A stretch of DNA of 64,000 nt from Thermoplasmata archaeon (GCA_027006785.1 JALTFR010000032.1:67685-131684); one strand, 5' to 3'. Shown: positions 4,661 to 24,776, counted from the first letter of the stretch. Notes: generated by a model from the sequence alone, not told the origin. Translations and numbers: made by a program.

Positions 4661-4661
4661 A

Positions 4662-5423: not shown

Positions 5424-5425
5424 GT

Positions 5426-5779: not shown

Positions 5780-5868
5780 ATCTATAAGTCAGAATGTGAA
5801 CGAAAGCCTGCGATAAAGAATAAATACACCCTGTGATTGGTGGGATAAAAGCACAAGAGAGTGAGAAA

Positions 5869-6675: not shown

Positions 6676-6725
6676 ATACACAAGTTTAATAAACGGAGAG
6701 ATCCATATCATACCGAGGTGATGAA

Positions 6726-7853
6726 ATGGTAAAGGCAGAACTTACGAAGGTAAGGGATTTTCTTGAGAAGGATTTTGAGAAGATAGACAGAGATGAAAGC
6801 ATATCGGTGCTCACGGGAAAGCTCAGAAGAAAGGACATACAGGAAGCCGTTGTTATAGATGGGAAGAGGCCTGCAGGCGTAATAAGTTATGACATACTCA
6901 TGAGAAGAGGCAACCTTCCGATGAGCGCAAAGGTGGGGCATTTCATGGTCTCACCACCGACTCTGGCCCCCGATAACAATTTCATAGATGCATGCGAGGC
7001 CCTATTCAGCTCCGGTCTGAGGATAATACCGGTCGAGGAGAAAGGAAAGCTGGAGGGCGTTGTTACAAGAAGATCCGTGATAAGAGTGGTTCCTAGGATA
7101 GACGAAATCGCATCAATAAAAGCCAGAGAGGTCATGAGCCACCGCCCTGTCGTAGCGGGAGAGAAAGATGACATCATGAAGGTAAAATCCATAATGGTGG
7201 AGCACGACATAAAGGCAGTTCCTGTTGTAAATGAGGACGGGGAACTGATCGGTGTGGTTGGTCTGAAGGATATAGCGGAGACCGTACTGAGGGACAAGCA
7301 GAGGGCTACATATGGTGATGCATCAGGAAACAGAGAGAAGGTCAACATACCTGTGAAAAGCATAATGCATGTGCATCCGATATTCGTGGGCCCCGGCAAG
7401 ACGCTGGGAGAGATAGCCAAACTGATGATAGACAATAAGATTGGCGGAATAATCATAACCGAGGGCAAGAAGCCTGTTGGAATAGTCCACCAGATAGACA
7501 TAATCGAGACAGCCGCAAACCTTGCACCCCGCGAAGGGGTTTATGTCCAGATATCGGGTGTAGAGGAGGCCGGCGAGGTCTATGACGAACTCTACGAGCT
7601 GATAGAGAAGTCCATGAAGAAGATAGTGGAGATAATCCCTCCAAGGATACTGAACGTACATGTTGTCCATCACCATGACCGTGAGGGCATAAACTACACC
7701 ATCAGGCTCAGGATGACCACCGAGAAGAAGACCTACTATGCGAGCCAGGACGACTGGAACATATTCAGAGCGCTCTCCATGGCACTGGAGGACCTTGAAA
7801 GGCAGGTCAAGAAGGACAAGGAGAAGTACATGGATGCCAGAAGGAAACCCTGA
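6726..7853 (+). CDS. CBS-domain protein (four CBS modules)
   Basis: Repeated CBS pairs (e.g. VMSHRPVVAGEKDDIMKVKSIMVEHDIKAVPVVNEDGELIGVVGLKDI). Confidence 0.7.
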   Translation: MVKAELTKVRDFLEKDFEKIDRDESISVLTGKLRRKDIQEAVVIDGKRPAGVISYDILMRRGNLPMSAKVGHFMVSPPTLAPDNNFIDACEALFSSGLRIIPVEEKGKLEGVVTRRSVIRVVPRIDEIASIKAREVMSHRPVVAGEKDDIMKVKSIMVEHDIKAVPVVNEDGELIGVVGLKDIAETVLRDKQRATYGDASGNREKVNIPVKSIMHVHPIFVGPGKTLGEIAKLMIDNKIGGIIITEGKKPVGIVHQIDIIETAANLAPREGVYVQISGVEEAGEVYDELYELIEKSMKKIVEIIPPRILNVHVVHHHDREGINYTIRLRMTTEKKTYYASQDDWNIFRALSMALEDLERQVKKDKEKYMDARRKP

Positions 7854-8244
7854 GATAATCGGCACAACAGCGGTCAAGGACACTGAAACCCTGCTTTCGA
7901 GGATAGGGCCCGACATCATCATAGACGCAGCGGTGGCATGTGGAAGGGCCCACATCATTTTCTCATATTTTCGGGCATTGCGCAATGTGGAGCGGAGGAC
8001 TGCAAAGGGAAGCAGCCTTGCAACAGAGTTCTTCAGGCAGATAACAGGAGAAAGGCAGGTCTCATCGGCCATAAAGAAGGCGAGGATAAAGGAAGGGAAT
8101 CCGGCGGTAGTAATAACTCACAGACAGCCTGAAGATGTCCTGAAAACGCTCGGGCTTGAAAGAGATGACTCGGTCATAGGATGCAATGGAGAGAACTGTG
8201 AGGAAGAATGCCTTGAGAGGAGCGCTCTGGTGGAGATACTGTGA
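7834..8244 (+). CDS. cgi121: KEOPS complex subunit Cgi121
   Basis: LATEFFRQITGERQVSSAIKKARIKEGNPAVVI...DDSVIGCNGENCEE resembles archaeal Cgi121 (compared from memory with the M. jannaschii sequence SGQRQIHEAIKIIGAKDGNVCLI...DDSVLEIN). Start placed at MPEGNPEII inside the longer listed ORF; overlaps the CBS gene end by 20 nt. Confidence 0.6.
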   Translation: MPEGNPEIIGTTAVKDTETLLSRIGPDIIIDAAVACGRAHIIFSYFRALRNVERRTAKGSSLATEFFRQITGERQVSSAIKKARIKEGNPAVVITHRQPEDVLKTLGLERDDSVIGCNGENCEEECLERSALVEIL

Positions 8245-8828
8245 GCTTCATAGTTATAGATGGTATTGACGGGTGCGGAAAGAGCAGCCATGCGAGATCC
8301 CTAGTATCGTACCTGAGAAGGAAGGGAAGGGAGGTCCTGTTCCTGAAGGAGCCGACAGGTGAAAGCCCTGCGGGAAAGAGGCTTGCCGAGGCGCTCAAAA
8401 GCAACAACAGGCCCTCGCCTGACGAGGAACTGAGGCTGTTCATAGGGGACAGGAGATGGGATGTCGAGAACCGGATACTGCCTGCGCTGAAAGAGGGAAA
8501 GGACATCGTCATGGACAGGTACTACTACAGCACAATTGCATATCAGGGCGCCAGAGGTATGGACATCGAGGAAATAAGAAGGATGAACGATTTCGCGCCT
8601 GTTCCAGACCTTGCGATAATACTTGACATAGACCCGGAGATAGCCGGGGAGCGCATAAACCGCAGGGGAAAGGGAGATTACTTCGAGGATCTCGATTACC
8701 TGAGGAAGGTCAGGGAGATATTCCTTTCAATGAAGGATATGCCGGAGGTCGTTATAATAGATTCCTCTGGCCCGTATCAGGATACGCAAAAAAGGATAAA
8801 AGAGGTTGTTGAAGGCATCATTCGCTGA
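8241..8828 (+). CDS. tmk: thymidylate kinase
   Basis: P-loop GIDGCGKSS, DRY motif (VMDRYYYST), lid region; GTG start overlapping the Cgi121 stop. Confidence 0.85.
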   Translation: MSFIVIDGIDGCGKSSHARSLVSYLRRKGREVLFLKEPTGESPAGKRLAEALKSNNRPSPDEELRLFIGDRRWDVENRILPALKEGKDIVMDRYYYSTIAYQGARGMDIEEIRRMNDFAPVPDLAIILDIDPEIAGERINRRGKGDYFEDLDYLRKVREIFLSMKDMPEVVIIDSSGPYQDTQKRIKEVVEGIIR

Positions 8829-9426
8829 TTCCCAGCACTTCTTCGGCCTTTTTCCGATTCTTTGCCACATTTTCGTCAACATCACGGTACAGGCTGTTAC
8901 CGTGGGAATCTATGCCGACCACCAGCGGCCCAAGGTCTTCGGCCTCAAGTATCCATATTGCTTCCGGCATCCCGAACTCGAACCATTCGACACCGTGGAC
9001 CTTCTTGAAGGCGGTTGCAGCCAGGGCAGCAGCGCCTCCGGTCATGGCCAGATAGACCGCACCGTGCTCCTTCATGGACTCCACCGTTGGCTCGGACATG
9101 CCTCCCTTTCCTATTATTGCGCGAACTCCGAAGCGCTCTATGAAATCCGGTTCTAGGGAGTTCATCCTCGAACTGGTCGTCGGACCTGCGGCGATCACAC
9201 GCCATTCTCCGTTCTCGTCCTTCTTCATCACAGGCCCGCAGTGGAATAGCACCATGTTCCTGAAATCCAGGGGGGGCTTCTTCCCTTCCTTCGCAAGTTC
9301 CAGAGCATGTATGTGCACCTCATCCCTTCCTGTGTAGATCATCCCGCTGAGATACACTATATCTCCGGTCCTGAGCTTCCGGACATCTTCCTCATTTAGC
9401 GGTGTTGTGAAGTGGTATTCCATCTT
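8818..9426 (-). CDS. class I fumarate hydratase, beta (C-terminal) subunit
   Basis: Fe-S hydro-lyase beta-type segment (FHCGPV...AIIGKGGMSEP...GAVYLAMTGGAAALA). Start placed at MEYHFTT giving a TGATG overlap with the alpha subunit. Confidence 0.8.
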   Translation of the reverse strand, partial: KMEYHFTTPLNEEDVRKLRTGDIVYLSGMIYTGRDEVHIHALELAKEGKKPPLDFRNMVLFHCGPVMKKDENGEWRVIAAGPTTSSRMNSLEPDFIERFGVRAIIGKGGMSEPTVESMKEHGAVYLAMTGGAAALAATAFKKVHGVEWFEFGMPEAIWILEAEDLGPLVVGIDSHGNSLYRDVDENVAKNRKKAEEVLGISE

Positions 9427-10301
9427 TATCCCTCCATCTCCTCTATTCTGCCGTCCTCGTATATCTTCGCTCTCGCCCTTCTTCCTGTCCAGCACTGCGT
9501 GTTCACGGCAACAGGCAGGCTTGCGGTGTGGCAGTACGCATATTCAACCTTTACATCAAGAACCGTGGTCTTTCCACCGAGCCCCATGGGTCCTATGCCC
9601 GTCTCGTTCATGGCCTTCATCAGTTCCTCCTCAAGCTCTGCTATATCCTTCTCAGGATGCCTCTCGCCTATGGGTCTCAGAAGGGATTCCTTGGCTATGT
9701 GCATCGCTATGTCCGATGTCCCGCCTATGCCAACCCCTATTACCGTTGGAGTGCATGGCTTTCCACCTGACCTTATGACGCAGTCAAGCACGAATTCCTT
9801 TATCCCTTTCAGCCCCTGTGATGGCGTCAGCATCTTCATGAAGCTCATGTTCTCGGAACCCGCTCCCTTGGGGAATGCGATTATCTCCACATACGGGTCG
9901 TCGGTTGGGATGTAGTTTATGGCAGGCATGCCCTTCCCTATGTTGTTACCGGGATTCTTTCTTGTGATGGGGTGCACGGCATTGGGCCTTAGCGGAACCT
10001 CTTCAGTCGCCTTCTCAACCCCTTTCCTTATGGCCTTCTCGAACTCTGAGAATGAGGGTATCAGCCTGAGGTTTCCCTTAACGAAGAATATGTGCACGCC
10101 GGTGTCCTGGCAGAGCGGAAGCCCCTCGCTCTTCGCGAGCTCTATGTTCTTCATTATCGCCTTCATCTGCATCTTCGGGACCTCGCTGTCCTCCCGTTCA
10201 TAGGCCTCTTCAAGCGCTCTCACCACATCCGGCGGGCTTCCCGTGCTGGCCATTCTCAGCAGGTCCACCACGACCTTCGTGACGGTCTCTTTCTGGATCA
10301 T
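9426..10301 (-). CDS. class I fumarate hydratase, alpha (N-terminal) subunit
   Basis: Fe-S hydro-lyase alpha-type Cys-containing segment (LPLCQDTGVHIFFV, GGKPCTPTVIGVGIGG). Confidence 0.8.
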   Translation of the reverse strand: MIQKETVTKVVVDLLRMASTGSPPDVVRALEEAYEREDSEVPKMQMKAIMKNIELAKSEGLPLCQDTGVHIFFVKGNLRLIPSFSEFEKAIRKGVEKATEEVPLRPNAVHPITRKNPGNNIGKGMPAINYIPTDDPYVEIIAFPKGAGSENMSFMKMLTPSQGLKGIKEFVLDCVIRSGGKPCTPTVIGVGIGGTSDIAMHIAKESLLRPIGERHPEKDIAELEEELMKAMNETGIGPMGLGGKTTVLDVKVEYAYCHTASLPVAVNTQCWTGRRARAKIYEDGRIEEMEG

Positions 10302-10320
10302 ATGGGCACATCAGTGAAGG

Positions 10321-11304
10321 TTAATTAACGGTTTCGCCGATTATAGGATTCTTCCTTCCATCGCTGACAAGCACCACCCTGCTCGGCCTGTATTCCATCA
10401 CAACTTCCCTTCCGGTGTACTCCCCTATCTTCGCACCGAAGTCCCTTATCTCATCGTGGGACGGCATGTTGTCCATGCTCATCCGCTCTCTGGAATATCC
10501 TACGAACACATACCCCTTGGCCTCTATGAAGTCGGGGTCCGCCTTCTCGATGAGCTTCGCATACTCCTTTTCATAGCCCTGCATGTTCCAGTCCTTAACG
10601 AGCGTGTGCCTGATGACAGTCCGAGTGTCCAGCGAGGGAAGGAGTTCAAGTGTCTCATTCAACCTTTCCCAGCCATTCGGTATCATCGGCACAAGGAGTT
10701 CGTTGTAGACCTTTTCGTTGGGCGCTGCCACCGTGACATATAACTGCGTGGGCAACGGGTCAAGGTTCTCGATGGCCTTCGGAAGCGTGCCGTTCGTTAC
10801 CAGAAATGTCGTCATCCCTCTTTTGTGGGCCAGTTCTATGAACTCTCCGAGCCGGGGGTATATGGTGGGCTCGCCGCTGAGCGATATGGCTATCTGATTG
10901 GGATTGTATGCTTCCTCCCACATCTCCCTGCTCACCCTCGGGTCCCCTTTGAAACCCGATATCAGCTTTCTCTGGGCCTCTATGCTCTCCTCAAGTATGA
11001 ACTCGGGCTCATCCACCTGTTTGAGGGTGGATTCGTTGAACGCCTGGAACCTCCAGCAGAAGAGGCAGTTCTGGGTGCACTGGTTGAGCGCTGGCGACAT
11101 CTGAAGGCATCTATGGGACTGTATGCCGTAGAAGACCTCCTTGTAGCACGGCCTTCCGCGCACCAGTTTCTCCTTCAGCCAGTGGCAGAGCTTCACTCCG
11201 GAATGCTCTCCGACCACCCTGTAGTGCTGTTTCTCAAGTATCCTCTTAAGCTCGGGTTCCATGGGCCTGCTGATGAAAGCCGGTATATGTATCTTTGCAG
11301 GCAA
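10321..11304 (-). CDS. taw1: tRNA 4-demethylwyosine synthase (Taw1/TYW1), radical SAM
   Basis: CTQNCLFCWR radical SAM CxxxCxxC motif in the Taw1 context, plus conserved N-terminal HYRVVGEHSGVKLCHWLK of TYW1. Confidence 0.85.
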   Translation of the reverse strand: MPAKIHIPAFISRPMEPELKRILEKQHYRVVGEHSGVKLCHWLKEKLVRGRPCYKEVFYGIQSHRCLQMSPALNQCTQNCLFCWRFQAFNESTLKQVDEPEFILEESIEAQRKLISGFKGDPRVSREMWEEAYNPNQIAISLSGEPTIYPRLGEFIELAHKRGMTTFLVTNGTLPKAIENLDPLPTQLYVTVAAPNEKVYNELLVPMIPNGWERLNETLELLPSLDTRTVIRHTLVKDWNMQGYEKEYAKLIEKADPDFIEAKGYVFVGYSRERMSMDNMPSHDEIRDFGAKIGEYTGREVVMEYRPSRVVLVSDGRKNPIIGETVN

Positions 11305-11337
11305 AGCCTTAAATCCACCCGGTTCTGCGCTCTCCCG

Positions 11338-11727
11338 ATGATGCGGATACTTCTCATAGCGGCCGGCGGAGCGCTCGGCGCCCTTTTCAGATACTACCTG
11401 TCAGGCCTCCCTTACAGATACACGGAGGGCAGTTTTCCCTGGGGAACACTTCTGGTGAACCTTCTGGGTGCCTTCGTAATCGGCCTCATGTGGGGGCTGA
11501 CCGAGGATGAGAGCGTATCTCCATATCTCAAGTCCTTCGTGTTCATCGGGGTCATCGCATCCTTCACCACATTCTCCACCTTTGCACTGGAGAGCGCTCT
11601 CTTCATCCGGGATGGTGAAAATGCTCTGGCCGGAGCATACATCCTCATAATGAACCTCGGGATACTTCTGGTCTTTGCGGGACTCGCAAGTTCAAAATAC
11701 ATGAAGCTCATGGGGGGAAGCATATGA
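11338..11727 (+). CDS. crcB: fluoride ion channel CrcB/Fluc
   Basis: MMRILLIAAGGALGALFRYYLSG...FPWGTLLVNLLGAFVIG is the canonical CrcB signature; the listed ORF from 10825 is an artefactual 5' extension that runs antisense through taw1. Confidence 0.85.
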   Translation: MMRILLIAAGGALGALFRYYLSGLPYRYTEGSFPWGTLLVNLLGAFVIGLMWGLTEDESVSPYLKSFVFIGVIASFTTFSTFALESALFIRDGENALAGAYILIMNLGILLVFAGLASSKYMKLMGGSI

Positions 11728-12083
11728 GGGAAGGAATGAGGAAAGGTGACGATGCTGTCCTTGTCCGGATATACATCGGAGAACTGGACCGATATCACGG
11801 AAAGAGCCTTTGGGAAGAGATATTGAAGAAGGCGAGGGAGATGGGCCTGGCAGGTTGCACCGTGCTCCACGGAGTGGCCGGCTTCGGTGCCGCGAGCCAC
11901 CTGCACACCTCAAAGGTGCTCAGGCTTTCAGAGGACCTTCCTGTTCTCATAGAGATGGTGGACAGGCAGGACAAGATAGACGAGATAATGCCATTTCTGG
12001 AGGAAGTGGTCACCGACGGGCTGATAACCACGGAGAAAGTTAAGATAGTCAAGTATGTTCACAGCAAGGGCAGCAAGGCCTGA
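11724..12083 (+). CDS. DUF190 (PII-like) CrcB-associated protein
   Basis: VLVRIYIGELDRYHGKSLWEEILKKAREMGLAGCTVLHGVAGFG pattern of DUF190; translationally coupled (ATGA) to crcB. Confidence 0.75.
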   Translation: MREGMRKGDDAVLVRIYIGELDRYHGKSLWEEILKKAREMGLAGCTVLHGVAGFGAASHLHTSKVLRLSEDLPVLIEMVDRQDKIDEIMPFLEEVVTDGLITTEKVKIVKYVHSKGSKA

Positions 12084-12091
12084 GAGCGCAG
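12058..12091 (+). repeat. left copy of 34-bp imperfect direct repeat (covers last 8 codons and stop of the DUF190 gene)
   Basis: TTCACAGCAAGGGCAGCAAGGCCTGAGAGCGCAG; 31/34 identical to the copy at 18387..18420. Confidence 0.8.
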
Positions 12092-12137
12092 AAAAGAGAC
12101 AGTGCATCTTATAATATAAAAAATGTAAAAAGATTTA

Positions 12138-15100
12138 TTAGGACATATCTGCCGCATCCTCGTGTTCTAGCGGCTCTTCCGGTGTATGCGAATCGCTCTC
12201 AGACATCTCTGAACCCATATCCTCCAGATTCTCATGTTGATCCATATCTTCTCCTGTGGATTTCTCCTCAACAGGTGGTTTTTTGCGCATTTTCATCACA
12301 AGGACCAGAAGAGCCAGCGCTACCAGCACTATGAGAAGTAGCACCCACCATGGGAAGGAAGACTGGGTTTGAGAAGAGGACGATGGAGATGGGGGTGCGG
12401 GGCTCAGTATGGGGGTGACAGTCGTAGAATTTCCGGGCGTTATAGTTATGTGGAGTGTTGTGGTATTGTATCCATCTGCCTCAACTATTATCTCATATGC
12501 ACCTTCAGGAATGTTTTCTATGGCAAAATCTCCGTTATCGTCTGTAGACGAAGTCTTATCTGTTCCAACAACGGTTACTGTTGCATCCGCCACAGCATTG
12601 CCGTCCGAATCCTTTACAGTCCCTGTAAGAGTGCCTGTCTCCGATGTGTTATTTCCAGTATTATTGTCGAATCCGTCTTCACTCACTGTTGTAAATCTCC
12701 AAGAGTACGGAATAAGCGCGTTTCCCGCAGGGTCGTTTCCGGTAACGGTTACGGAGTATGTGGTGTTCTCGGCCAGATTCTCTGCAAGAGTGAATACCGC
12801 CGTATCGCCCGCCCATGAGAGGGTTCCAGATACGCCCACAATGGATATTGACACGCTGGATTTGTTCATGGGTTCCGAGAAGGTCACGGTTATAGCCGTA
12901 TTCACGGGGACCGATGTGCCATCCGGGGTGTGAGAGGTTACCTCCGGGGGCGTGGTATCGATGGTAAATGTGCTGTTCGTTATATTGAGGAATCCAACCC
13001 TGTCCGTGGCCCTTACCTCAACCAGATGCTCCCCGTCCTCCAGCCCCGTGAAGGTGTGCTCCGTATCCGTGCCGACATTTATCCACATCACCTTGTCAAT
13101 TCTCACAAGGTAGTACGCAACTCCTGACCACTCATCCGAACCGCTCCACTGAACAGTGACCGAACTCGAAGAGAGAAGTGCGTCCGCGCCGGGGGATGTA
13201 ATCTCCACCGTTGGCGTGGTTATGTCGTAGCCACACAGTATGTCCGCAGTGGTCTTTGCCTCGGCATTCCCGCTCATATCCGTGGCCACGCTCATGAACT
13301 GGTAGTAGCCCTCTCCGTTCGGGAACGTGAATACGACATCTGTGGAATTTGATGTTCCGGACAGCTTAATGGCATCGCCGAACTGCACCCAGTCGGACCA
13401 TGATGAATTGTCTTCTGAGTAGCGGTAGTGGAGTGTTATGTTCTTCAGCCCGGAGTTGTCCGTCGCGTTCAATGTCAGGGTTGTCTGTGTGTGCTGCCAG
13501 TATTTGGATAGCGGTTCAATGAAGGACGATGGGGGCTCGTTCTCCTTCTCCGTTGTGAATGAAACTCCTGCGGGTGCCCCTGCCATAGAATTGCCTGCTA
13601 AGTCCTTCGCCTCGGATACCGTGAATGTGTATGTTACGGAGTTCTGGAAATCCGCATGGGTCAGGGTGGCCGTGGTGTTGTTGTTTGACCATGAAACTGA
13701 CCAGCCGCCCGGGTCAGGAGAGCAGGAATAGGAGAATGTGGATATATCTATGCTCTCGCTGAAATTGAGGAGAATGGGCTGGCTAACTGGAACTCCAGTA
13801 GTCCCGTCCTCTGGGGTGCCGCTAACAATCTCCGGCGGAACCGCATCCACATCAAAGGTCACTGAGCGTATGGTCGTGTGTCCCGCGTAATCGGTCGCCC
13901 CGATCTCAACGGTGTATGTTCTGCTGGTCAGGTTCGTGAATGTGTGGCTGGTGCTGGCACCCGCCGATGCCCATGCCGGCTGGCCGGGCGTGATTCTATA
14001 CTGATAGTACGAGATTCCGCTCCCGGAGTCGCTCCCCGTCCATGATACAGTCACATTTCCGGTTACAAGAGAGCCTTCCGCAGGGGAATCTATAGTCAGG
14101 TCTGGCGGCAGCAAATCACCTATGGCGTACATTCTTCCGCTGGCGGAGCCCACATAGATAAGGCCGTCCGCAATTGCAGGGGAAGAGCGTATGTTGGCCC
14201 CGATTGCCATGTGCCACTTCTCCGTGCCGTCTGGATTCAGTGCGTAGATGTTCCCGTCGGCGGAGCCGAAGTAAATCGTGCCGTCCTGCCCAACCGCAGG
14301 GGAAGAGACTATTGCGCCTCCTGTGGTGAAGTTCCACTCGAACGATGGCTGGTTGGAAGAGACATTCAAGGCGTGCATAACCCCCTCGTCGTCACCGATG
14401 TAGAACATGCTGCCATCTGGGTTGAATGCCACGGTGCCCTCTATTCCCGAAGTGGCGGATATGTTGATCATTCCGAGAATGCTCCCGTCGCTCTGGCTGA
14501 GGCCGTAAAGCGCCCCGTCCATGCCGCAGATGAGAACGGCGTCGTCCCCGGCCAGAGTTGGTGATGATGTGATGTTGGCATCTATCGAGGTGTTCCAGAG
14601 TATCGTGCCGTATGGATTTACAGCGTATGTCTGGTCCTTGAATGTGGAGAAGAAGATCGTGCCCGTGCTGTTGATTACCGGCGATGAAACAACCGCGGCG
14701 TTCACGGAAACATTCCACTTCTCAACCCCGTCCGGATGTATGGCATAGAGCCTGTTGCTGAGTGTACCAGCATATACCGTGCCGTCGGAGGCGACCACAG
14801 GAGAGGAATCCACCATGCCGTTCAGTTCAATCTTCCATTTCAGTGTGCCGTTGGGGTTCAGGGCGTAAAGGTAGTTATCCCGTGCTCCGAAGTAAACGGT
14901 GCCGTCATCGGCTATGGCAGGGGATGAAGCGATTACAGGCGAAGCATCCGGATGATAGGCCCACTTCTCGGTTCCATTTGGGTTCAGGGCGTAGAAGGTG
15001 CCGTCATACGAGCCGAAGTAAACCGTGCCGTCCTCCGCTATCGCAGGGGAACTCCTGACCTCTCCGCTCGTGCTGAAGTTCCAGTACTCCCACGCGCCCT

Positions 15101-18100
15101 GTGAGCCGTTGAAGTCCCCTATGCCCGTGTGAGATGCATCGTGGTGGAACATGGGCCATCCGCCTGTCGCCAGATATGTGGGTGCAGAGCCCACAGGGAA
15201 GACGAGTGGATAGTTATCGGTACCTCCTGCACCGTTTATGCTGATATAGGGCACATCGCCTATGCCATCGGTTCCGGGTATGTTCTGGGACGGCCCGGAG
15301 TAATAGTCAGCGCCATTGTAGTCTGACCAGTAATTACCTCCGGTCGGGTAAGTGGCGTTCCACACATTGCTGCCGGTATCATCGTATGCCTGAATCCCGT
15401 TGTGTATGAAACTGTTATGATATATGTTGTTACCGGAGGAACTCTGGAGGTGGAGGCCGTACTGGCCATTGTATGCAACGGTGTTGTTGTATATGATACC
15501 ATTTGCAGTGTTGTATAAGTGTAAACCTTCAAAGGTGTTATGAGATATGGTATTATTGCACAGTTTCAGGTTGCTTGGACTATAGAGTGAAATTCCGTAC
15601 TGGGTGCTGTCGTTTCCTGTGACAGAATTGTTTTCAAGCGTCAAATATATATGACTAAATCCGCCGCTATTTTGGGCATATATGCCGAAGTATCCCTGAT
15701 TGGTCCTTATGGTGTTCCCGGAAATATTGAAATAATTCTGGCCAGTCACATAGGTCCCGTTCCCTTTTCCGTGATTCTCTATGTGGTTGTTATATATGTT
15801 GGCGAGATATGTATAGGAGAACCATATCGCGTTATTCGTGTCTTTCCAGTTGATTATGGTATTGCCCGTGACATTGATGTTCACGCCACTAAAGGAGTAC
15901 ACCGCTGCACCCGAGCTGTTAACAAAGGTGTTATCGGTTATGTTCATATGATACCCATCGAATCCCAGCCCTGCTCCCCATCTGTCCTCCGAGAAATAGT
16001 TGCCTACCACCTCGTCGGAACCCTTTCCCGTATAAACGGAAAACTCGCTGAGTATTCCGACGATTGAGTTGGAGATGTTATTCCCCGCAAATCTGTTCTT
16101 TCCGATACTGCCTGTCATGTATATGCCGTAGTATGCCTCTATTGTGCTGTTCTCCACAGTGTTGTTCCATGAATGGAGAATCTGCACGCCCACATACTCG
16201 TCGGTGAGCGTCTGGTTTCTTACGAGGACGCCGGTGCAGTTCGCAAGTATGACCTCGCCGGCACCCTCAGGCACGGTCCCGCCGGTCCGGTCCTTCCAGT
16301 AGTAGACGGGCCTGTCGTTCACGGTGTTGCTGGTGTCCAGAGTGTGGGATACCGCCAGATTTTTGTTAGGGGCATATATGTAGAAACTGGTGTGGAAGAG
16401 TTTGTTCTCCCGAAGAATCTCATGGAAACCCTCTATATAAATCCCCCGCTTTGCTGACCTCCAGTTCTCGTGAATCGTGTTGTTTAGAACGGTGTTGTAG
16501 TCGGAATATCGGTCCAGGTTTATGCCCCCTTGGTTGCTATTGTACCATATCGTGTTGTCGCTTATGTTGTTGTAGTCACTGACCGCATTCTGTGAGGAAT
16601 CGTCGCACTTTGCATCTATGCCCCACTGCCCGTTGAATGAGGCGTTGTTGCCGGTAACATTGTTCCAGCCAGCCCGGTCCATCACTATGCCGTCATTGGA
16701 ATTGGAATACGCATGGTTGTCCGTAACATTGTTGTATCTCGAATCGCTACCGATGGAGATGCCATTGTAGGAGTTCGAGTGGGCATCGTTTCCGCTTATA
16801 ATATTACAGTTACTGGAAACCACGGCGGTGATCCCGTCCCTGTGATTATTCCTCACCGTGTTGTCAGAGAAGGTGTTGTGGCTTGCGCCGTACAGGACGA
16901 GGCCGTAATTGTTCTCATAGGCCGTGTTGCCGTGGACATAAATGCCTGTGGAATTTCTGACATATACGGCATAGTTGTTGTTATTTCTCCCGAGGGTGTT
17001 GTAAACCTCGCCGGCCGTTGCGTTGAATACCACTATACCGGTATCCGGGAAATACGGGAATGTGTTGACTCCCGAGGCGTTGTGAACCACCACATCGCTT
17101 ACGATGAAGTTTTTGGTGGTGTTCCCTATGTAGATGCAGTACCCGTATCCCTCACCGTCTATGTCGTAATTGGATATAACATAAGGGTTGCCCGGGCTTC
17201 CGTCTCCCGAAGATACCCCGTGCTCCGAATCGAACTCCGTGTCGTTATTTATCCGGATAGGTTTGCGGATGTACTTCATTATCGGGTAGCTGTCCGTGAC
17301 AGCGTTGGAGTATTCGGTATCGCCTATGCCGTCGCTGCCTGAGATGTTCTGACCGGGGCCGTGATACGCATCGCTTCCCGTGTAGTCGGACCAGTGGTTG
17401 CCTCCGCCGGGGTATGAGAGATTCCAGCGGTTGTGGGAATTGTCGTTCTCAAAGCCATTCGGATGTTGCCAGTCTCCATTGTACAGAATGTTGTTGTGAT
17501 ACACCAGGCTTCCGGAGGACTGGTGGTCAAACACAATCCCGTAATACCTGGAATGCACCACCGTGTTCCCGACAATCGTGTTGTTATTGCTGGAATAGGT
17601 GCACGCAATTCCGACATTGCCGGCATAGAGGACCGTGTTCCACGCTACAGTATTGTTGGAGCAACTCACATAGAGACCTATCGAGGTTCCGCTACCGTGT
17701 CCGACCATGTTGTTGGATATTGTATTGTTGGATGCTTCGTAAAGAACTATGTCTCCCGTATTGTCGCTCATGGTGTTGTGGTCGACAATGTTTCCGGTGG
17801 ACTCCCTCATGTATATGCCATAGTTGTCGCAGTTCTCCATGATGTTGCCATACACAGAAGCATTGGTCACATTGTACAGGACGAGTCCGCCATCAGGGTA
17901 GTAGGGAATGCTGTTCTTCCCGCTGGCATTGTTGAAATAGCTGTTTCTCACTATGAAATTGACTGTTGTATTGCCTATGTAAAGGCAGTAGCCATAACCG
18001 GTTCCATTGATTGCATAGTTCTCTATAATATATGGGTCAGAGGCGTTCCCGCTCCCATTCCACCCTTGGTATGCTACTTCATTCAGGAAATCACTATTGT

Positions 18101-18257
18101 TATTTATTCGTATGGGGTTTTGGGTTTTGTATGTTGGTGCTGAAGTAACGGGCTGAGAAAATGCTGTTTGTGCGTCTCTACTGTCGCTGCTCGCCACCAT
18201 AGCCAAACCGCTCACAAGGAGCATTCCTATAATCAAGATGGATAGAATTCTTTTCAA
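12138..18257 (-). CDS. giant (2039 aa) cell-surface protein: signal peptide, two tandem NosD/disaggregatase-like parallel beta-helix modules, PQQ-like beta-propeller, several Ig-like domains, carboxypeptidase-regulatory-like domain, Pro/Ser linker, C-terminal TM anchor and acidic cytoplasmic tail
   Basis: N-terminal MKRILSILIIGMLLVSGLAMVASS signal; Asn/Gly/Thr-rich right-handed beta-helix coils (NNTISNNMV, GNTV...) in two ~300-aa tandem copies, each ending in a xGxDGIGDxxY motif; about eight GTVYFGSxDGxLYALNPxGTxKW repeats; Ig-like PPEI/PPEV modules; TGTVKDSDGNAVADATVTVVG; WWVLLLIVLVALALLVLVM then KMRKKPP and acidic tail. Confidence 0.85.
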   Translation of the reverse strand: MKRILSILIIGMLLVSGLAMVASSDSRDAQTAFSQPVTSAPTYKTQNPIRINNNSDFLNEVAYQGWNGSGNASDPYIIENYAINGTGYGYCLYIGNTTVNFIVRNSYFNNASGKNSIPYYPDGGLVLYNVTNASVYGNIMENCDNYGIYMRESTGNIVDHNTMSDNTGDIVLYEASNNTISNNMVGHGSGTSIGLYVSCSNNTVAWNTVLYAGNVGIACTYSSNNNTIVGNTVVHSRYYGIVFDHQSSGSLVYHNNILYNGDWQHPNGFENDNSHNRWNLSYPGGGNHWSDYTGSDAYHGPGQNISGSDGIGDTEYSNAVTDSYPIMKYIRKPIRINNDTEFDSEHGVSSGDGSPGNPYVISNYDIDGEGYGYCIYIGNTTKNFIVSDVVVHNASGVNTFPYFPDTGIVVFNATAGEVYNTLGRNNNNYAVYVRNSTGIYVHGNTAYENNYGLVLYGASHNTFSDNTVRNNHRDGITAVVSSNCNIISGNDAHSNSYNGISIGSDSRYNNVTDNHAYSNSNDGIVMDRAGWNNVTGNNASFNGQWGIDAKCDDSSQNAVSDYNNISDNTIWYNSNQGGINLDRYSDYNTVLNNTIHENWRSAKRGIYIEGFHEILRENKLFHTSFYIYAPNKNLAVSHTLDTSNTVNDRPVYYWKDRTGGTVPEGAGEVILANCTGVLVRNQTLTDEYVGVQILHSWNNTVENSTIEAYYGIYMTGSIGKNRFAGNNISNSIVGILSEFSVYTGKGSDEVVGNYFSEDRWGAGLGFDGYHMNITDNTFVNSSGAAVYSFSGVNINVTGNTIINWKDTNNAIWFSYTYLANIYNNHIENHGKGNGTYVTGQNYFNISGNTIRTNQGYFGIYAQNSGGFSHIYLTLENNSVTGNDSTQYGISLYSPSNLKLCNNTISHNTFEGLHLYNTANGIIYNNTVAYNGQYGLHLQSSSGNNIYHNSFIHNGIQAYDDTGSNVWNATYPTGGNYWSDYNGADYYSGPSQNIPGTDGIGDVPYISINGAGGTDNYPLVFPVGSAPTYLATGGWPMFHHDASHTGIGDFNGSQGAWEYWNFSTSGEVRSSPAIAEDGTVYFGSYDGTFYALNPNGTEKWAYHPDASPVIASSPAIADDGTVYFGARDNYLYALNPNGTLKWKIELNGMVDSSPVVASDGTVYAGTLSNRLYAIHPDGVEKWNVSVNAAVVSSPVINSTGTIFFSTFKDQTYAVNPYGTILWNTSIDANITSSPTLAGDDAVLICGMDGALYGLSQSDGSILGMINISATSGIEGTVAFNPDGSMFYIGDDEGVMHALNVSSNQPSFEWNFTTGGAIVSSPAVGQDGTIYFGSADGNIYALNPDGTEKWHMAIGANIRSSPAIADGLIYVGSASGRMYAIGDLLPPDLTIDSPAEGSLVTGNVTVSWTGSDSGSGISYYQYRITPGQPAWASAGASTSHTFTNLTSRTYTVEIGATDYAGHTTIRSVTFDVDAVPPEIVSGTPEDGTTGVPVSQPILLNFSESIDISTFSYSCSPDPGGWSVSWSNNNTTATLTHADFQNSVTYTFTVSEAKDLAGNSMAGAPAGVSFTTEKENEPPSSFIEPLSKYWQHTQTTLTLNATDNSGLKNITLHYRYSEDNSSWSDWVQFGDAIKLSGTSNSTDVVFTFPNGEGYYQFMSVATDMSGNAEAKTTADILCGYDITTPTVEITSPGADALLSSSSVTVQWSGSDEWSGVAYYLVRIDKVMWINVGTDTEHTFTGLEDGEHLVEVRATDRVGFLNITNSTFTIDTTPPEVTSHTPDGTSVPVNTAITVTFSEPMNKSSVSISIVGVSGTLSWAGDTAVFTLAENLAENTTYSVTVTGNDPAGNALIPYSWRFTTVSEDGFDNNTGNNTSETGTLTGTVKDSDGNAVADATVTVVGTDKTSSTDDNGDFAIENIPEGAYEIIVEADGYNTTTLHITITPGNSTTVTPILSPAPPSPSSSSQTQSSFPWWVLLLIVLVALALLVLVMKMRKKPPVEEKSTGEDMDQHENLEDMGSEMSESDSHTPEEPLEHEDAADMS

Positions 18258-18285
18258 ACTCTCACCTCGAAGTATTCGACCATAT

Positions 18286-18306
18286 GCATAAACTATATAA
18301 AACTTT
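18286..18306 (-). promoter_or_regulatory. putative BRE/TATA promoter of the giant surface-protein gene
   Basis: On the minus strand, GAAAAGTTTTATATAG lies ~30-45 nt upstream of the ATG at 18257, within a 130-nt AT-rich (>75% AT) intergenic region. Confidence 0.4.
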
Positions 18307-18386
18307 TCTACAAAGAATTAATAAAACTTTTATATAATATATTAAAAAAATAATATTTAAAAATTAATTTTATAGAGCCCTTCCAT

Positions 18387-18420
18387 TTCACAGCAAGGGT
18401 AACAGGGCCTGAGAGCGCAG
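18387..18420 (+). repeat. right copy of 34-bp imperfect direct repeat (overlaps, on the opposite strand, the last codons of the sugar-phosphate isomerase gene)
   Basis: TTCACAGCAAGGGTAACAGGGCCTGAGAGCGCAG; read in the + frame it would encode HSKGNRA*, a pseudo-copy of the DUF190 C-terminus HSKGSKA*. Confidence 0.8.
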
Positions 18421-19164
18421 GAATTCAAGGCTTTTCAGGGCATCGCCCATTCCCTTATCCTGCTCCAGAACGAAGTTCCCGCCATAGCCTTCGAGCGCTG
18501 AAAGAACCTTTTTCCAGTCAATATTCCCTTCACCTATCGGCAGGTGCTCGTCATCCTTTCCCATGTTGTCGTGTATGTGGATGTTTGCGAGCCGGTCCTT
18601 TCTTTTCAGGAATTCATCTATTGTTCCGATGGTGTTCGCATGGCCAACATCGAAGCACCATTTAATATCAAGGCCTTCGGTCATCTCCTCAAGTTCCCAC
18701 GGCTCGCGGCCAACGGTTATGAATGTCAGGGGCATGTTCTCAAGAGCAAGCGTTATTCCCCTGTCGAGCGCTCCCCTTTCCAGAATCCTAAGCACAGCCT
18801 TCGTCCTTTCCCTGACCTTTTCGGGAACCCTGTAAAGCGGCGTGCGAAAACCGGGATGCAATGTCATGACCTCAACTCCCAGATTTGAGGCGCTCTCCAT
18901 CGCCAGAACCATCTCCTCTATCACGGCATCCCGCACGAGAGGGCTTGCGGCCGCCAGGTTTATGTCGCTCAGCGGAGCATGGACCTGAATTAGCATATCA
19001 TTGCTTTCCAGATACTCCGAAAGCTCCTTTTCTATGTCCGGAAGCCTCAAAGTTCCCTCTGCGGTTATCTCCCAGCCGTCGAAGTGCGGTGAAATGACCT
19101 CCAGAACATCAGAAAGAGGCATGGATGAGAATGAATTGCTCGATATCAGAAGCATCTCAATCAC
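18388..19164 (-). CDS. sugar phosphate isomerase/epimerase (xylose isomerase-like TIM barrel) family protein
   Basis: TIM-barrel signature segments (VHAPLSDINLAA, LHPGF, IHIHDNMG...HLPIGEGNIDW). Confidence 0.7.
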   Translation of the reverse strand: MIEMLLISSNSFSSMPLSDVLEVISPHFDGWEITAEGTLRLPDIEKELSEYLESNDMLIQVHAPLSDINLAAASPLVRDAVIEEMVLAMESASNLGVEVMTLHPGFRTPLYRVPEKVRERTKAVLRILERGALDRGITLALENMPLTFITVGREPWELEEMTEGLDIKWCFDVGHANTIGTIDEFLKRKDRLANIHIHDNMGKDDEHLPIGEGNIDWKKVLSALEGYGGNFVLEQDKGMGDALKSLEFLRSQALLPLL

Positions 19165-19531
19165 CGATGAATGTGAGCCACTGTATCAGTTTCTCAGGGC
19201 TTTCGCTCTCAATCCTTATTTCGATCTCTCCGAGCGCGGGATTGTTTCCTCCGAATGATATCTTTCCCACATATGCGGCCTGCTTGCTTATGCTGAACTC
19301 CATGATGCCACCTTTGAGATGCCCCATAAGATAATGCCTAGCAGTGTCCCTTATCCTCAGATCCCTTAAGATCTCCCTGAACCTCTCGAGGTCCGAGGCA
19401 TTTCCTGTTATCCTTTCCTTCTTCACTTCAAGCTCTGCGTCGGGGAATATTTTCAGGATAGCGCTCTTCACCTTCTCTTCAGATTCGGTCGGATAGAGGG
19501 GAGCGCCTATGCTTATGGAAGCAGCGGGCAT
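19157..19531 (-). CDS. conserved archaeal hypothetical protein (UPF0201-like, possibly RNA-binding)
   Basis: 124-aa ORF starting MPAASISIGAPLYPTE; the listed longer ORF adds a basic leader. Family assignment from memory only. Confidence 0.45.
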   Translation of the reverse strand: MPAASISIGAPLYPTESEEKVKSAILKIFPDAELEVKKERITGNASDLERFREILRDLRIRDTARHYLMGHLKGGIMEFSISKQAAYVGKISFGGNNPALGEIEIRIESESPEKLIQWLTFIGD

Positions 19532-19614
19532 GATGGTGGAAAGAGTTTTCTGGTTTAAAAACCGTCGCCTTTTCCATTCCATTCAAAACCCTTATTAACC
19601 AACCCTGTAATCCA

Positions 19615-20049
19615 ATGAGCATGAAAGTTCTGGTTGTCATGGGAAGCAAGAGCGACATGCCTGTCGCCGAGAAGGTCGAGGCCATACTGAAGGAATTCGG
19701 TGTTCCTTACGAGATAGAGGTGGCGTCAGCGCATCGCAATCCTCCGAAGGTCGAGGCCCTTGCGAAGAGGGAGGATGTGGATCTGTTCATAGCCATAGCG
19801 GGGCTGAGCGCTGCGCTCCCCGGTGTCATAGCTTCGCACACGACAAAGCCAGTCATAGGCGTGCCTGTCAGCGGAAAGGTCAATCTGGATTCAATACTCT
19901 CCATAGTGCAGATGCCTCCGGGAATACCTGTGGCCGCAGTCGGTCTTGACAACGGAAAGAACGCCGCCATGCTCGCGGTGGAGATACTTGCGATGAAATA
20001 CCCTGAGCTTACCGAGAAGATAGAGGCATATCGGGAGAAGATGAGGTGA
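19615..20049 (+). CDS. purE: N5-carboxyaminoimidazole ribonucleotide mutase PurE
   Basis: [40 protein letters not shown]... canonical PurE. Confidence 0.85.
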
Positions 20050-20053
20050 TGCT

Positions 20054-20998
20054 TTGGACCCTGCGAAATTTGTCGAGGACAGCATAAAGGAACTGAGGGA
20101 GACCATAGACGGAAAGGCCATAATTGCCATATCCGGAGGTGTGGATTCATCGGTGGCAGCGGCGATAACCTCTCAGGCAATCGGAGACAGGCTGACGGGT
20201 GTCTTCGTGGACACCGGATACATGAGAAAGAACGAGGCTGAGGAGGTAAGGGAGATATTCTCGGAATACGACCTCGATTTTCGCATAGTTGATGCCAGCG
20301 ATGACTTCTACGAGTCATTGTCCGGGGTAACAGACCCTGAGAGGAAGAGGAAGATAATAGGCGCGAAGTTCATAGATGTATTCAGGGAGGTGGCCGCAGA
20401 GGTCGGTGCCGAGTATCTCATCCAGGGGACCATAGCGCCTGACTGGATAGAGAGCGGAGGAGAGCTCAGAGACACCATAAAGAGTCATCACAATGTCGGG
20501 GGGCTTCCCAAGAAACTGGGAATGAAACTTGTGGAACCTCTCAGGGACCTTTACAAAGATGAAGTAAGGGAACTGGCTCGCTACCTGAAGCTGAATGTCG
20601 CGGAGAGACAGCCATTTCCCGGGCCGGGACTTGCCATAAGGGTCATAGGTGAGGCTAGCCCGGAGCGCGTCGCAATAGTGAGAGAGGCGAATTACATCGC
20701 TGAGCAGGAGATTGAGAGGGCGGTTGAAGAGGGAAAGATGAGCATGCCGTGGCAGTACTTCGCCGTTCTTCTCCCTGTGAAGACCGTCGGGGTCCACGGA
20801 GACCTGAGGGCGTACGGTGAGACCATCGTGGTCCGGGCTGTGGAATCAATGGATGCGATGAGTGCAACCTACTCAAGAATTCCTCACGAGGTTCTGGACA
20901 GGATATCCCGCAGGATAACCAACGAACTGGGCGACAGGGTGAACAGGGTCGTCTACGACATAACGAACAAGCCGCCGGGAACCATAGAGTGGGAGTGA
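20054..20998 (+). CDS. guaA: GMP synthase [glutamine-hydrolysing] subunit B (ATP pyrophosphatase domain)
   Basis: PP-loop AISGGVDSSV, C-terminal GMP synthase dimerisation segment (HHNVGGLP...PFPGPGLAIR); TTG start right after purE stop. Confidence 0.85.
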   Translation: MDPAKFVEDSIKELRETIDGKAIIAISGGVDSSVAAAITSQAIGDRLTGVFVDTGYMRKNEAEEVREIFSEYDLDFRIVDASDDFYESLSGVTDPERKRKIIGAKFIDVFREVAAEVGAEYLIQGTIAPDWIESGGELRDTIKSHHNVGGLPKKLGMKLVEPLRDLYKDEVRELARYLKLNVAERQPFPGPGLAIRVIGEASPERVAIVREANYIAEQEIERAVEEGKMSMPWQYFAVLLPVKTVGVHGDLRAYGETIVVRAVESMDAMSATYSRIPHEVLDRISRRITNELGDRVNRVVYDITNKPPGTIEWE

Positions 20999-20999
20999 A

Positions 21000-21839
21000 A
21001 TGGCGAGGGCCTTCGCTCCGGGCCATATAACCGGTTTCTTCGCACCTTACAGGGATGAAGACCCTGTTAAGTCAGGTTCATGGGGTGCCGGCTTTGCCAT
21101 AGACCTTGGAGCGACGGCAGAGGTGGAGCTCCACGGCTCAGGAATTGAGATAGAGCTTCCCTATGGTGATGGAGAGGTAACAAGAAAGGCCGTTGAGACG
21201 GCGCTCTCCGAGAGCCATGAGAAGGGAGTTCGTGTAGATATAGAACTGCAGCTCCCTGTGGGCCAGGGGTTCGGGATGAGCGCTGCAGGAACCCTTGCAA
21301 CGACCATGGCGCTCGCTGAACTGCTCGGAAAGGAGAGGGGGGATGCACTCCGATGGGCCCATACCGCGGAGGTCCTTTCAGGAACAGGGCTCAGCGATGC
21401 CATCGGAAGTTATTACGGAGGGCTTGTCGTCCGAAAGGAACCCGGGCTTCCGCCCTACGGTGAGGTAATAAAAAAAGATGTCATCAGAGAGGTCTGGATA
21501 ATGGTGGTCGGAGAGCCTATTGATACGAGGGAATTCCTGCAGAGAAGGGGGAATGAAGTAATAGAGGCAGGAAAAAAGGCACTTTCCGAACTTCTTTCAG
21601 ACATCTCCTTCTCGAATTTCATTAGACAGAGCAGGGAATTCGCAGAGGATATCGCGATAGGTGATGCGCTCCGCCACATACCCGATGGGTTCAGGGGAAG
21701 CCAGGTCATGCTGGGAAATTCGGTCTTCTTCACCTCTTCAGGCTCCGGAATGGTCAACCTGTCCGGGAAAAAGGCAGAGGCACCTCTGAAGGCCATAAGG
21801 TGCAGAATAGACAACACGGGGGCGAGGGTCATTGGGTAA
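21000..21839 (+). CDS. archaeal pantoate kinase (GHMP kinase family, CoA biosynthesis)
   Basis: MARAFAPGHITGFFAPY...SWGAGFAIDLGATAEVEL...PVGQGFGMSAAGTL pattern of COG1829 pantoate kinase; adjacency to guaA is common in archaea. Confidence 0.6.
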   Translation: MARAFAPGHITGFFAPYRDEDPVKSGSWGAGFAIDLGATAEVELHGSGIEIELPYGDGEVTRKAVETALSESHEKGVRVDIELQLPVGQGFGMSAAGTLATTMALAELLGKERGDALRWAHTAEVLSGTGLSDAIGSYYGGLVVRKEPGLPPYGEVIKKDVIREVWIMVVGEPIDTREFLQRRGNEVIEAGKKALSELLSDISFSNFIRQSREFAEDIAIGDALRHIPDGFRGSQVMLGNSVFFTSSGSGMVNLSGKKAEAPLKAIRCRIDNTGARVIG

Positions 21840-21864
21840 GCAGGGAAAACTGAGCGAAGAGGAG

Positions 21865-23037
21865 ATGAGGTTCGCAAAGGCCAGGTTCTTCCGGTATTAC
21901 TCCAGGGCAGAGATAGATCCACCTCCAAGGGTCGCACTGCGTGAATGGGGCTTCTTTCTCTTTGGCGGCGACAGGATGCACAGGCCGGTGACCTTCGATG
22001 GAAGAGAGAGCATGAAGGACTACCTCTTCCGAAAGGTCCCGAGGCACGCATACTATTCAACAGCGTATTACAGGAATCCCGGAATGCCGATGGAATCACC
22101 TGAGAAGGGATGGATGGGTGCGGACCTCATATTCGACCTCGACGCGGACGGGCTGCCCGGCGCTGATAAACTGAGCTACGAAGAGCAGCTTGAAGCGGTG
22201 AAGAAGGAGATAATTAGGCTCTACGATGTATTCCTTCAGGAGCACCTCGGTTTTTCCGACGATGAGATGTCCCTTGTATTCTCTGGAGGTAGGGGGTATC
22301 ACATACACATACGAAGCCCGTCCGTGCTGGACATGAACTCGGATGAGAGAAGGCAGATAATGGACTATGTGGCAGGAAACTTTCAGGAGTTCAGCGAGGT
22401 CTTTCCGAAGAAGAGGGTGCCAGGAAGAGGCACCGTGAAGGAAGTTCCCCTGCTTCCAACAGAGGAAGGCGGATGGAGGGGAATGGTGAGGGAGGAGGCA
22501 GCCCTGCTCATAAGCACATTTCAGATGCTCGGAAGAGAGGGCTCCGTCGAGCTCATGAAGGATGTGGGAGTAAGGAGGGACGTGGGAGCAAGGATATATG
22601 AGCGGCTCTTAGAGGGGGAGAGATATAGAAGCATGATGAAGACAGGAGACCTGAGCATCTTTAAAAGCGATGCTGAACTGAATGCCTTCTTTAAGGTCCT
22701 TGAGGCAGAAATAAGGGAGAAATACGCGGTGCATCCCGATGTCCATGTCACTCCTGATATACGGAGGCTCATCCGACTTCCGGGCTCGCTTCACGGAGGA
22801 ACAGGTTTTCTTGTAAGGGAGATATCCAGAGATGAACTCGATGATTTCACGCCAACGAGAGATGCGATACCTTCCATATACGAAGACGAGGCCCTCATAG
22901 GTGTTGAGGCAGAGAATCCTGTGAAAATAAGCATATCCGGTCAGGAATACCGGCTCAAGGGCAGGCAGAAGGTCCCCGAGGCAGTGGCTGTGTTTCTGAT
23001 ACTTTCGGGCAGAGCATCTCTATCGGGAAAGCTTTAA
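21865..23037 (+). CDS. priS: DNA primase small (catalytic) subunit PriS
   Basis: ADLIFDLDADG (catalytic DxD), SGGRGYHIHI, RLPGSLH motifs of archaeo-eukaryotic primase; ATG at MRFAKARFF chosen (TTG at 21832 possible). Confidence 0.8.
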   Translation: MRFAKARFFRYYSRAEIDPPPRVALREWGFFLFGGDRMHRPVTFDGRESMKDYLFRKVPRHAYYSTAYYRNPGMPMESPEKGWMGADLIFDLDADGLPGADKLSYEEQLEAVKKEIIRLYDVFLQEHLGFSDDEMSLVFSGGRGYHIHIRSPSVLDMNSDERRQIMDYVAGNFQEFSEVFPKKRVPGRGTVKEVPLLPTEEGGWRGMVREEAALLISTFQMLGREGSVELMKDVGVRRDVGARIYERLLEGERYRSMMKTGDLSIFKSDAELNAFFKVLEAEIREKYAVHPDVHVTPDIRRLIRLPGSLHGGTGFLVREISRDELDDFTPTRDAIPSIYEDEALIGVEAENPVKISISGQEYRLKGRQKVPEAVAVFLILSGRASLSGKL

Positions 23038-23060
23038 AAGCATAAAATGAATGGGCTCCT

Positions 23061-24710: not shown

Positions 24711-24760
24711 TTTTTGTCGTCCAGTTATTCACTTTTAGACGATATAGGCGAGATTTTACC

Positions 24761-24776
24761 AAAAGACATATATAGG
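24761..24776 (+). promoter_or_regulatory. putative BRE/TATA box and downstream GGAGGT ribosome-binding site of the surface-protein gene
   Basis: AAAAGACATATATAGG ~35 nt upstream of GGAGGTTTAACCATG (ATG at 24813). Confidence 0.35.

Follow-up and report, generated by a model that had tools for sequence, protein, structure and literature searches.

Insertion sequences, transposons and casposons leave target duplications of roughly 2-15 bp, and the archaeal casposons integrate at the 3' ends of genes. Integrative elements and genomic islands that enter gene 3' ends are bounded by direct repeats of tens of base pairs, which restore the 3' end of the target and in principle allow excision; integron cassettes are units of one gene each that sit at a fixed site with a short direct repeat on either side. 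In bacteria, foreign DNA is also acquired by homology-facilitated illegitimate recombination (HFIR) together with single-crossover integration (PMC3240628), a route proposed for the effector-immunity modules of the type VI secretion system in Vibrio cholerae (PMC5361080), and the cell-wall island of Haloquadratum walsbyi is a flexible ('replacement') island for cell-surface proteins (PMC4535781). Here we analyse a locus in a 64,000-nt stretch of DNA from a Thermoplasmata archaeon (GCA_027006785.1, JALTFR010000032.1:67685-131684; the window hereafter), in which a single giant gene encoding a surface protein stands between the DUF190 gene of a crcB-DUF190 fluoride module and a gene for a xylose-isomerase-like protein (the isomerase gene hereafter) and is bracketed by a 34-nt direct repeat. 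Comparison of the 64 kb with 100 fetched related loci (labelled L001 and so on) leads us to propose that its two neighbors once overlapped and that, almost certainly, the giant gene was inserted at this overlap and 34 bp of the target became duplicated.

The locus shares traits with each of these systems. As with transposons and casposons, the insert is flanked by a direct duplication of its target, of which the empty site holds one copy; however, the duplication measures 34 bp (up to 37 bp with one mismatch in our tally), and the insert is single-copy, consists of one ordinary cellular gene, and has no terminal inverted repeats, transposase or Cas1. The repeats restore a target 3' end as those of integrative elements do, and would likewise permit excision in principle, but the insert carries neither an integrase nor an element backbone and has native codon usage, the 34-mer was found on no virus or plasmid contig and at no other site, and the target is an overlap of protein genes, not a tRNA gene. 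A single gene that occupies a fixed site and has a short direct repeat at either end also recalls integron cassettes, from which the locus differs in the absence of an attC-like imperfect palindrome, of IntI and of a cassette array, in the putative promoter that the gene brings with it, and in a repeat made of the host's own gene ends. With HFIR it has in common foreign DNA placed beside a conserved gene with no mobile-element machinery, the possible duplication of anchor stretches, and a locus under diversifying selection, although HFIR was shown in bacteria, not archaea, and no donor for the insert was found among the loci compared. As in the H. walsbyi island, a strain-specific giant surface (glyco)protein gene lies in a conserved core context and has strongly divergent alleles in near-identical strains, apparently exchanged by homologous recombination; the content of the locus varies among close relatives, and the surface protein with its divergent alleles is an anchored one. 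The window differs in that one gene alone has entered an overlap of two genes and left a visible insertion scar, whereas the island is a multi-gene unit swapped via conserved flanks. The case is an example of known processes, namely the gain of a strain-specific surface-protein gene, target duplication and mosaicism by homologous recombination, to which it adds a tail-to-tail gene overlap resolved by duplication.

The two copies of the repeat lie in the same orientation and are identical at 31 of 34 positions, as the initial annotation of this DNA had described and as both direct reading and a mismatch search bore out; they differ at 12071/18400, 12073/18402 and 12076/18405 (Table 1). A repeat search lengthens the pair to 37 nt at 89% identity. 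With up to three mismatches allowed, exactly two sites were returned from the 64-kb window and none from 100 dinucleotide-preserving shuffles. The final eight codons of the DUF190 gene and its stop (...VKYVHSKGSKA*, the asterisk denoting the stop) lie in the left copy, a reading of the initial annotation that translation upholds, and on the antisense strand of this copy a relic isomerase tail, LRSQALLPLL*, can still be read. The right copy had been described as a near copy of the DUF190 end lying opposite the end of the isomerase gene. Its plus-strand frame does encode a relic DUF190 tail, HSKGNRA*, but the copy is in fact the authentic 3' end of the isomerase gene and holds its last 10 codons and stop (18388-18390); a tail of the form LRSxxLLxLL* is native also in L090 and L091, relatives with no DUF190 gene. 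Each copy therefore serves one gene now, the left DUF190 and the right the isomerase, and retains the relic tail and stop of the other, from which it follows that a dual-coding segment was duplicated.

Table 1. Features of the window, occupancy states downstream of the isomerase gene (1 to 5), and giant genes of relatives. Positions refer to the window unless a locus label precedes them.
Feature	Position	Strand	Basis or remark
crcB (fluoride channel), upstream partner of DUF190	11338..11727	+	Pfam CRCB, E=1.6e-23 on longer open reading frame (ORF)
DUF190 gene	11724..12083	+	Pfam PF02641, E=4.5e-38
Tract nearly identical to empty-site relative L004	11895..12091	.	1 difference in 197 nt; stops at last base of left copy
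Left 34-nt copy	12058..12091	+	TTCACAGCAAGGGCAGCAAGGCCTGAGAGCGCAG; DUF190 3' end now; identical to L004 single copy
Former overlap, 25 bp	12059..12083	both	Isomerase-stop reverse complement TCA (12059-12061) to DUF190 stop TGA (12081-12083)
Giant-gene 3' flank, left insert end, 46 nt	12092..12137	-	Minus-strand oligo-T runs
Giant surface-protein gene, 2039 aa	12138..18257	-	ORF, Pfam domains, translation
Hypervariable centre of giant gene	13424..17614	-	72-97% identity to strain L001
Giant-gene AT-rich 5' region, right insert end, 129 nt	18258..18386	-	TATA-like TTTATATA
Right 34-nt copy	18387..18420	+	TTCACAGCAAGGGTAACAGGGCCTGAGAGCGCAG; isomerase 3' end now (LRSQALLPLL*)
Xylose-isomerase-like TIM-barrel gene (sugar-phosphate isomerase/epimerase family), 255 aa	18388..19155	-	Pfam PF01261, E=3.4e-37
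State 1: DUF190 overlapping isomerase	L004, L102, L007-L010/L092		
State 2: giant gene with duplication	this window		
State 3: taw1 (wyosine) directly adjacent	L090 2079-3945; L091 876-2528		No crcB-DUF190
State 4: convergent TPR gene abutting isomerase stop	L101 328-2355		
State 5: C11-peptidase giant gene	L005		
C11-peptidase giant gene of L007	L007 11628-16788		crcB / C11 giant + orf132 / taw1; no long flanking repeats
2313-aa beta-helix giant gene (P0122)	L104 6001-12942		NMD3 / giant / DUF424-MCM; no long flanking repeats

An assembly artefact was ruled out as the source of the pair: both junctions recur in L001, a metagenome scaffold of independent origin with a different, 92%-identical allele of the giant gene, and the left junction recurs in a Logan contig (L003). 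The same holds for a dispersed motif, the possibility that the initial annotation had named as fatal to its proposal, since the window has only two copies and the pattern TTCACAGCAAGGGNNNCANGGCCTGAGAGCGCAG gave 0 matches, counting exact matches to the pattern only, in the metagenome and viral contig collections. Within the left copy, and in L004 too, positions 12062-12078 form an internal 9-nt tandem repeat, CAGCAAGGG CAGCAAGGC, which translates as SKG-SKA in DUF190 and as xLL-PLL on the other strand in the isomerase; it is less regular in the right copy and in L090 and L091.

An ancestral overlap of 25 bp, which the initial annotation missed, accounts both for the position of the repeat and for the need for a duplication. 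In L004, L102 and L007-L010/L092, whose isomerases are 91%, 80% and 78% identical to that of the window, respectively, the DUF190 and isomerase genes are directly convergent around a single copy of the segment, as the initial annotation had anticipated for an uninterrupted locus, and they overlap tail to tail by exactly 25 bp (called genes at L004 7793-7817, L007 10741-10765 and L102 811-835, and in L009 too), so that each strand of the shared segment codes for the tail and stop of one gene. L004 shows the left flank of the window, a single 34-mer and then the right flank, and the two BLAST high-scoring segment pairs between the window and L004 overlap each other by 37 nt in L004 (7782-7818). 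Beyond the 25-bp overlap itself, the duplicated segment extends by 1 nt on the side of the isomerase stop and by 8 nt on that of the DUF190 stop.

Because the overlap is present in three lineages that bracket the window lineage by similarity, and because the insert is confined to the window strain group among the lineages compared, we take the insertion to be the derived state. No same-strain empty allele is on record, and all contigs that encode exactly this DUF190 or isomerase protein have an occupied site. The opposite polarity, with the repeat-flanked giant gene ancestral and the empty sites produced by repeat-mediated precise deletion, could appeal to the 34-bp direct repeat as a possible deletion substrate and to the frequent rearrangement of the region, but it would require at least three independent precise deletions (in the L004, L102 and L007 lineages, whose overlap segments have diverged from one another) and a repeat that began as a duplication of a dual-coding overlap, with both tails and stops in each copy. 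We consider it extremely unlikely, the more so as no homologue of the giant gene above 45% identity was found outside the window strain group and as identity ranks suggest that the window lineage falls inside the empty-site lineages. Precise excision of the giant gene through the present repeats, which the initial annotation had also put forward, is plausible as a putative event. Equally, the duplication might have preceded the insertion: a 34-bp tandem duplication by slippage, which the internal 9-nt tandem repeat of the L004-type segment could favor, would have uncoupled the two genes and turned the new junction into a neutral place for the giant gene. This two-step history strikes us as distinctly improbable, in that it calls for two independent events, the second of them exactly at the copy boundary with no repeat bases missing or displaced, and in that a tandem duplication with no insert is seen in no relative.

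The inserted DNA amounts to 6,295 bp, of which 175 nt are non-coding, and, in agreement with the initial annotation, comprises one ORF of 2,039 aa and its AT-rich 5' region between the copies. No integrase or integrase remnant was found in the insert, as had been reported, nor in the neighboring crcB, DUF190, isomerase and RNA-binding genes; the rest of the window and the genome were not scanned for a trans-acting integrase. The ten alternative-frame ORFs of the insert gave no Pfam match, and neither a transposase or Cas1 ORF nor element-type cargo or a second gene was found in it. Between the two 200-nt ends of the insert, only chance-level matches of 7-13 nt were obtained when terminal inverted repeats were sought, and these ends have no further copy in the window or the 100 fetched loci. 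There is no tRNA gene in the window and no Rfam match in the region, and the 34-mer has no dyad symmetry and no secondary structure. The compositional contrast that a foreign giant gene might be expected to show was not borne out: the GC content of the insert is 0.513, its GC content at third codon positions (GC3) is 0.626, and its codon usage is native-like, with a correlation of r=0.91 to that of its neighbors. There is no sign of a mobile element at the locus. The insertion with a duplicated target that the initial annotation had proposed is upheld by the duplication and the empty sites; its further proposal of a site-specific, integrase-type island, degenerate or mobilized in trans, is unsupported, because there is no room for an integrase, there are no terminal inverted repeats, the ends are unique, tRNA genes and Rfam RNAs are absent, and codon usage is native.

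A form of that proposal deserves separate mention. It supposes a circular element with the giant gene as cargo and a 34-bp attP that matched the gene ends; a tyrosine or serine recombinase, acting in trans or lost since, would have integrated it, and the repeats, as attL and attR, could still allow its excision. Integrative elements typically rebuild the 3' end of their target gene with direct repeats tens of base pairs long, both junctions here are clean, and the pattern of mismatches fits a crossover within the 15 identical nucleotides at the right-hand side of the repeat. We nevertheless judge site-specific integration improbable: the insert, with its 175 non-coding nucleotides, holds neither an integrase nor other cargo genes; the 34-mer lies nowhere else in the window, the metagenome contigs or the viral contigs and is without symmetry or structure; codon usage is native and the target is not a tRNA gene; other giant-gene insertions of the clade lack such repeats; and the mismatches are better accounted for by a homologous-recombination tract shared with L004 (see below). 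The two giant genes inserted elsewhere in relatives (the last two entries of Table 1) lie in ordinary spacers, where flanking matches reach only 8-11 nt, the chance level. A general rule of repeat-bracketed giant genes was rejected on the basis of these two genes, and the long repeat is peculiar to the one case in which a gene overlap was the target. For annotation, the caution is that one gene enclosed by a long direct repeat is not necessarily a mobile element.

The three mismatches between the copies are all synonymous Leu-Leu exchanges in the isomerase frame (TTG CTG versus CTG TTA), whereas the DUF190 frame has N in place of S and R in place of K in the right copy. The left copy forms the end of the tract that is nearly identical to L004 (Table 1). 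Up to 11894, 22 differences to L004 are counted in 154 nt, and from position 14 of the right copy onward differences amount to about 12% again. When divergence is normalized by the L004-L007 distance, the 3' half of DUF190 is a clear outlier, with a ratio of 0.04 where every other segment falls at 0.18-0.51. Since this 197-nt recombination tract common with L004 terminates with the left copy, the mismatches are probably allelic; their use as a clock for the duplication, or as differences between attP and attB, was ruled out, the left copy lying inside a recent recombination tract. Over 10333-25685, divergence between the window and L004 is mosaic, with adjacent 150-nt windows ranging from 84% to 100% identity, which indicates frequent homologous exchange between these Thermoplasmata lineages.

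Lineages that recombine so clearly also invite another account, in which the giant gene was captured, by HFIR or by a Campbell-type single crossover, from a related donor that carried it just downstream of the isomerase gene and, like genomes of the L090/L091 type, had no DUF190 gene there. Pairing would have occurred through the isomerase gene, with an illegitimate join of the other end at 8 nt beyond the DUF190 stop, so that the apparent duplication would consist of the recipient's overlap segment and the donor's isomerase tail. On its left side the repeat ends 1 nt from the isomerase stop, where similarity to a donor gene would be expected to cease; the right copy fits the codon pattern of L090 (CTT TTA) at 3/3 variable sites and that of L091 (CTA TTG) at 2/3, and these are genomes with no DUF190 at the locus; the order isomerase, then giant gene, exists in L005; and HFIR with single-crossover integrations that double the anchoring homology is documented in bacteria (PMC3240628; model in PMC5361080). 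On this account the isomerase 3' part would have been imported and should be unusually divergent from L004; its raw identity of 84-91% looks low, but no such signal is detectable after rate normalization, where its ratio (0.47) is no outlier beside those of the DUF190 5' half (0.51) and AIRC (0.44). To our knowledge, HFIR has not been demonstrated in archaea. No donor-type genome, with this giant gene beside the isomerase gene and no DUF190, was found among the loci compared, and the scheme needs a prior insertion in the donor as well as a rare illegitimate join. We keep homology-anchored capture as the main rival to our preferred reading, tentative and on balance unlikely.

We propose, at about even chances, that the duplication arose through a recombination or repair event that was not site-specific. 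The insertion itself is almost certain: ancestrally, the isomerase gene converged with the crcB-DUF190 operon and the two had their last 25 bp in common, and in the window lineage a one-gene cassette of 6,295 bp, made up of a putative promoter, the membrane-anchored giant surface-protein gene and a putative terminator, entered at this place while 34 bp of the target were doubled. The doubling would have come from a staggered break that was filled in, or from a replicative template switch re-entering 34 nt upstream, as the candidate routes, with no dedicated recombinase acting on an att site. Selection would have served as the filter, in that only a duplicative insertion spanning both stops spares both genes, and this would explain why the repeat matches the overlap so closely. 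Later homologous exchange with an empty-site lineage probably replaced the 3' half of DUF190 up to the end of homology (11895-12091), giving the left copy its L004-type allele and hence the three mismatches, and the giant gene probably continues to be remodelled by intragenic allelic recombination. The locus is an unusually legible natural example of how a gene enters where two genes share coding sequence, with release of the dual-coding constraint.

Several observations weigh against this proposal. A duplication of 34 bp is long for break repair, and the breakpoints, at +1 nt and +8 nt from the two stops, lie so close to them that homology or a recognition site may have set the boundaries. 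The dinucleotide signature of the insert deviates from that of the rest of the window (delta* 146 versus 34±15), for which the repetitive amino-acid composition of a beta-helix protein may be the sole cause. In the hunt for a donor by protein homology, the best hit to the giant gene beyond the 92% strain allele was 42% identity over 52% of the length; with no donor closer than this homologue, signatures of microhomology or template switching at the junctions are beyond inspection. The 42% homologue sits at an unrelated locus (NMD3 / giant / DUF424-MCM) and has no bracketing repeat.

The product of the giant gene has a signal peptide, beta-helix/NosD repeats, a PQQ-like beta-propeller, Ig-like/Big_5 domains, a CarboxypepD_reg domain and many N-X-S/T sequons, and it ends in a transmembrane anchor followed by an acidic tail (Pfam NosD 2.9e-58, Beta_helix 1.8e-54, Beta-prop_ACSF4 3e-52, Big_5 8.5e-31); it is predicted to be a type-I anchored surface protein. 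The oligo-T runs of its 3' flank likely represent an archaeal terminator. At the other end, GC content drops to about 0.40 in the 5' region, a putative promoter, and a GGTGA ribosome-binding motif precedes the TTG start. Compared with strain L001, the window is 100% identical over 1724-13423 and 17615-21814 (given as more than 10 kb on either side), stretches that include both ends of the giant gene, whereas the middle 4.2 kb of the gene differs by 3-28%, with the lowest identity, 72%, at 15515-15814. Such divergence of the centre points to intragenic allelic replacement or diversifying selection.

Within one genus-level clade, five occupancy states are found downstream of the isomerase gene (Table 1), and the fluoride module crcB-DUF190 is itself variably present in the clade. 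The state in L005 stems from a different rearrangement: its segment 219-1228 corresponds to L007 10001-11628 except that exactly DUF190-crcB is missing, and the break falls about 4 nt from the DUF190 stop. Here the isomerase has lost its native tail and runs into new sequence (…LHRIGHETEGLSRE*), and a gene for a 1,502-aa C11-peptidase/Big_7 surface protein follows directly. The loss of the tail is the cost of a non-duplicative rearrangement at the same junction. In the window and in L005, which were rearranged independently, the breakpoints fall only a few nucleotides from the DUF190 stop, which is compatible with a preferred cleavage site there. One could imagine that the 34-mer is the recognition site of an as yet undescribed trans-acting insertion system in these Thermoplasmata, which could insert promoter-bearing cassettes, each with a single surface-protein gene, where converging genes have their 3' ends, and excise them again; we hold this to be very improbable speculation, but if true, it would provide on/off or swap variation of surface proteins with no element-encoded recombinase. 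In these vent-associated Thermoplasmata, the position downstream of one housekeeping gene is a hot spot at which giant surface proteins are gained and then diversified, probably by intragenic recombination, between otherwise identical strains, a pattern of gain followed by diversification that is expected for targets of viruses or grazers.

Among the flanking genes, the coordinates of crcB match a 129-aa gene call in L001 and L002. The exact 255-aa isomerase product is on record, whereas no record was found for the 258-aa ORF version of the gene, and the relatives of the isomerase form a graded identity series from 91% down to 40%. In the spacer between the RNA-binding gene and AIRC (about 19544-19580), the window is without the RHH-ParE toxin-antitoxin pair that lies upstream of the RNA-binding gene in L004 (6185-6644), L007 (8445-8904) and L091 (2-470); L007 has an additional 211-aa ORF at that position.

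The window contains a second long direct repeat, at 31928-31964 and 35470-35506, of 37 nt and 92% identity, with degenerate similarity over about 70 nt further. The first copy lies inside an intact gene resembling class-II aminoacyl-tRNA synthetases (31751-32797, minus strand), and the second is a relic fragment in the AT-rich spacer 3' of an SBF transporter gene; genes for a TrmB-family regulator, a DUF2378 protein and a DUF3108-like protein lie between them. That this pair reflects the same phenomenon as the 34-nt repeat was ruled out, as it involves a relic gene fragment, and it looks like the scar of another rearrangement.

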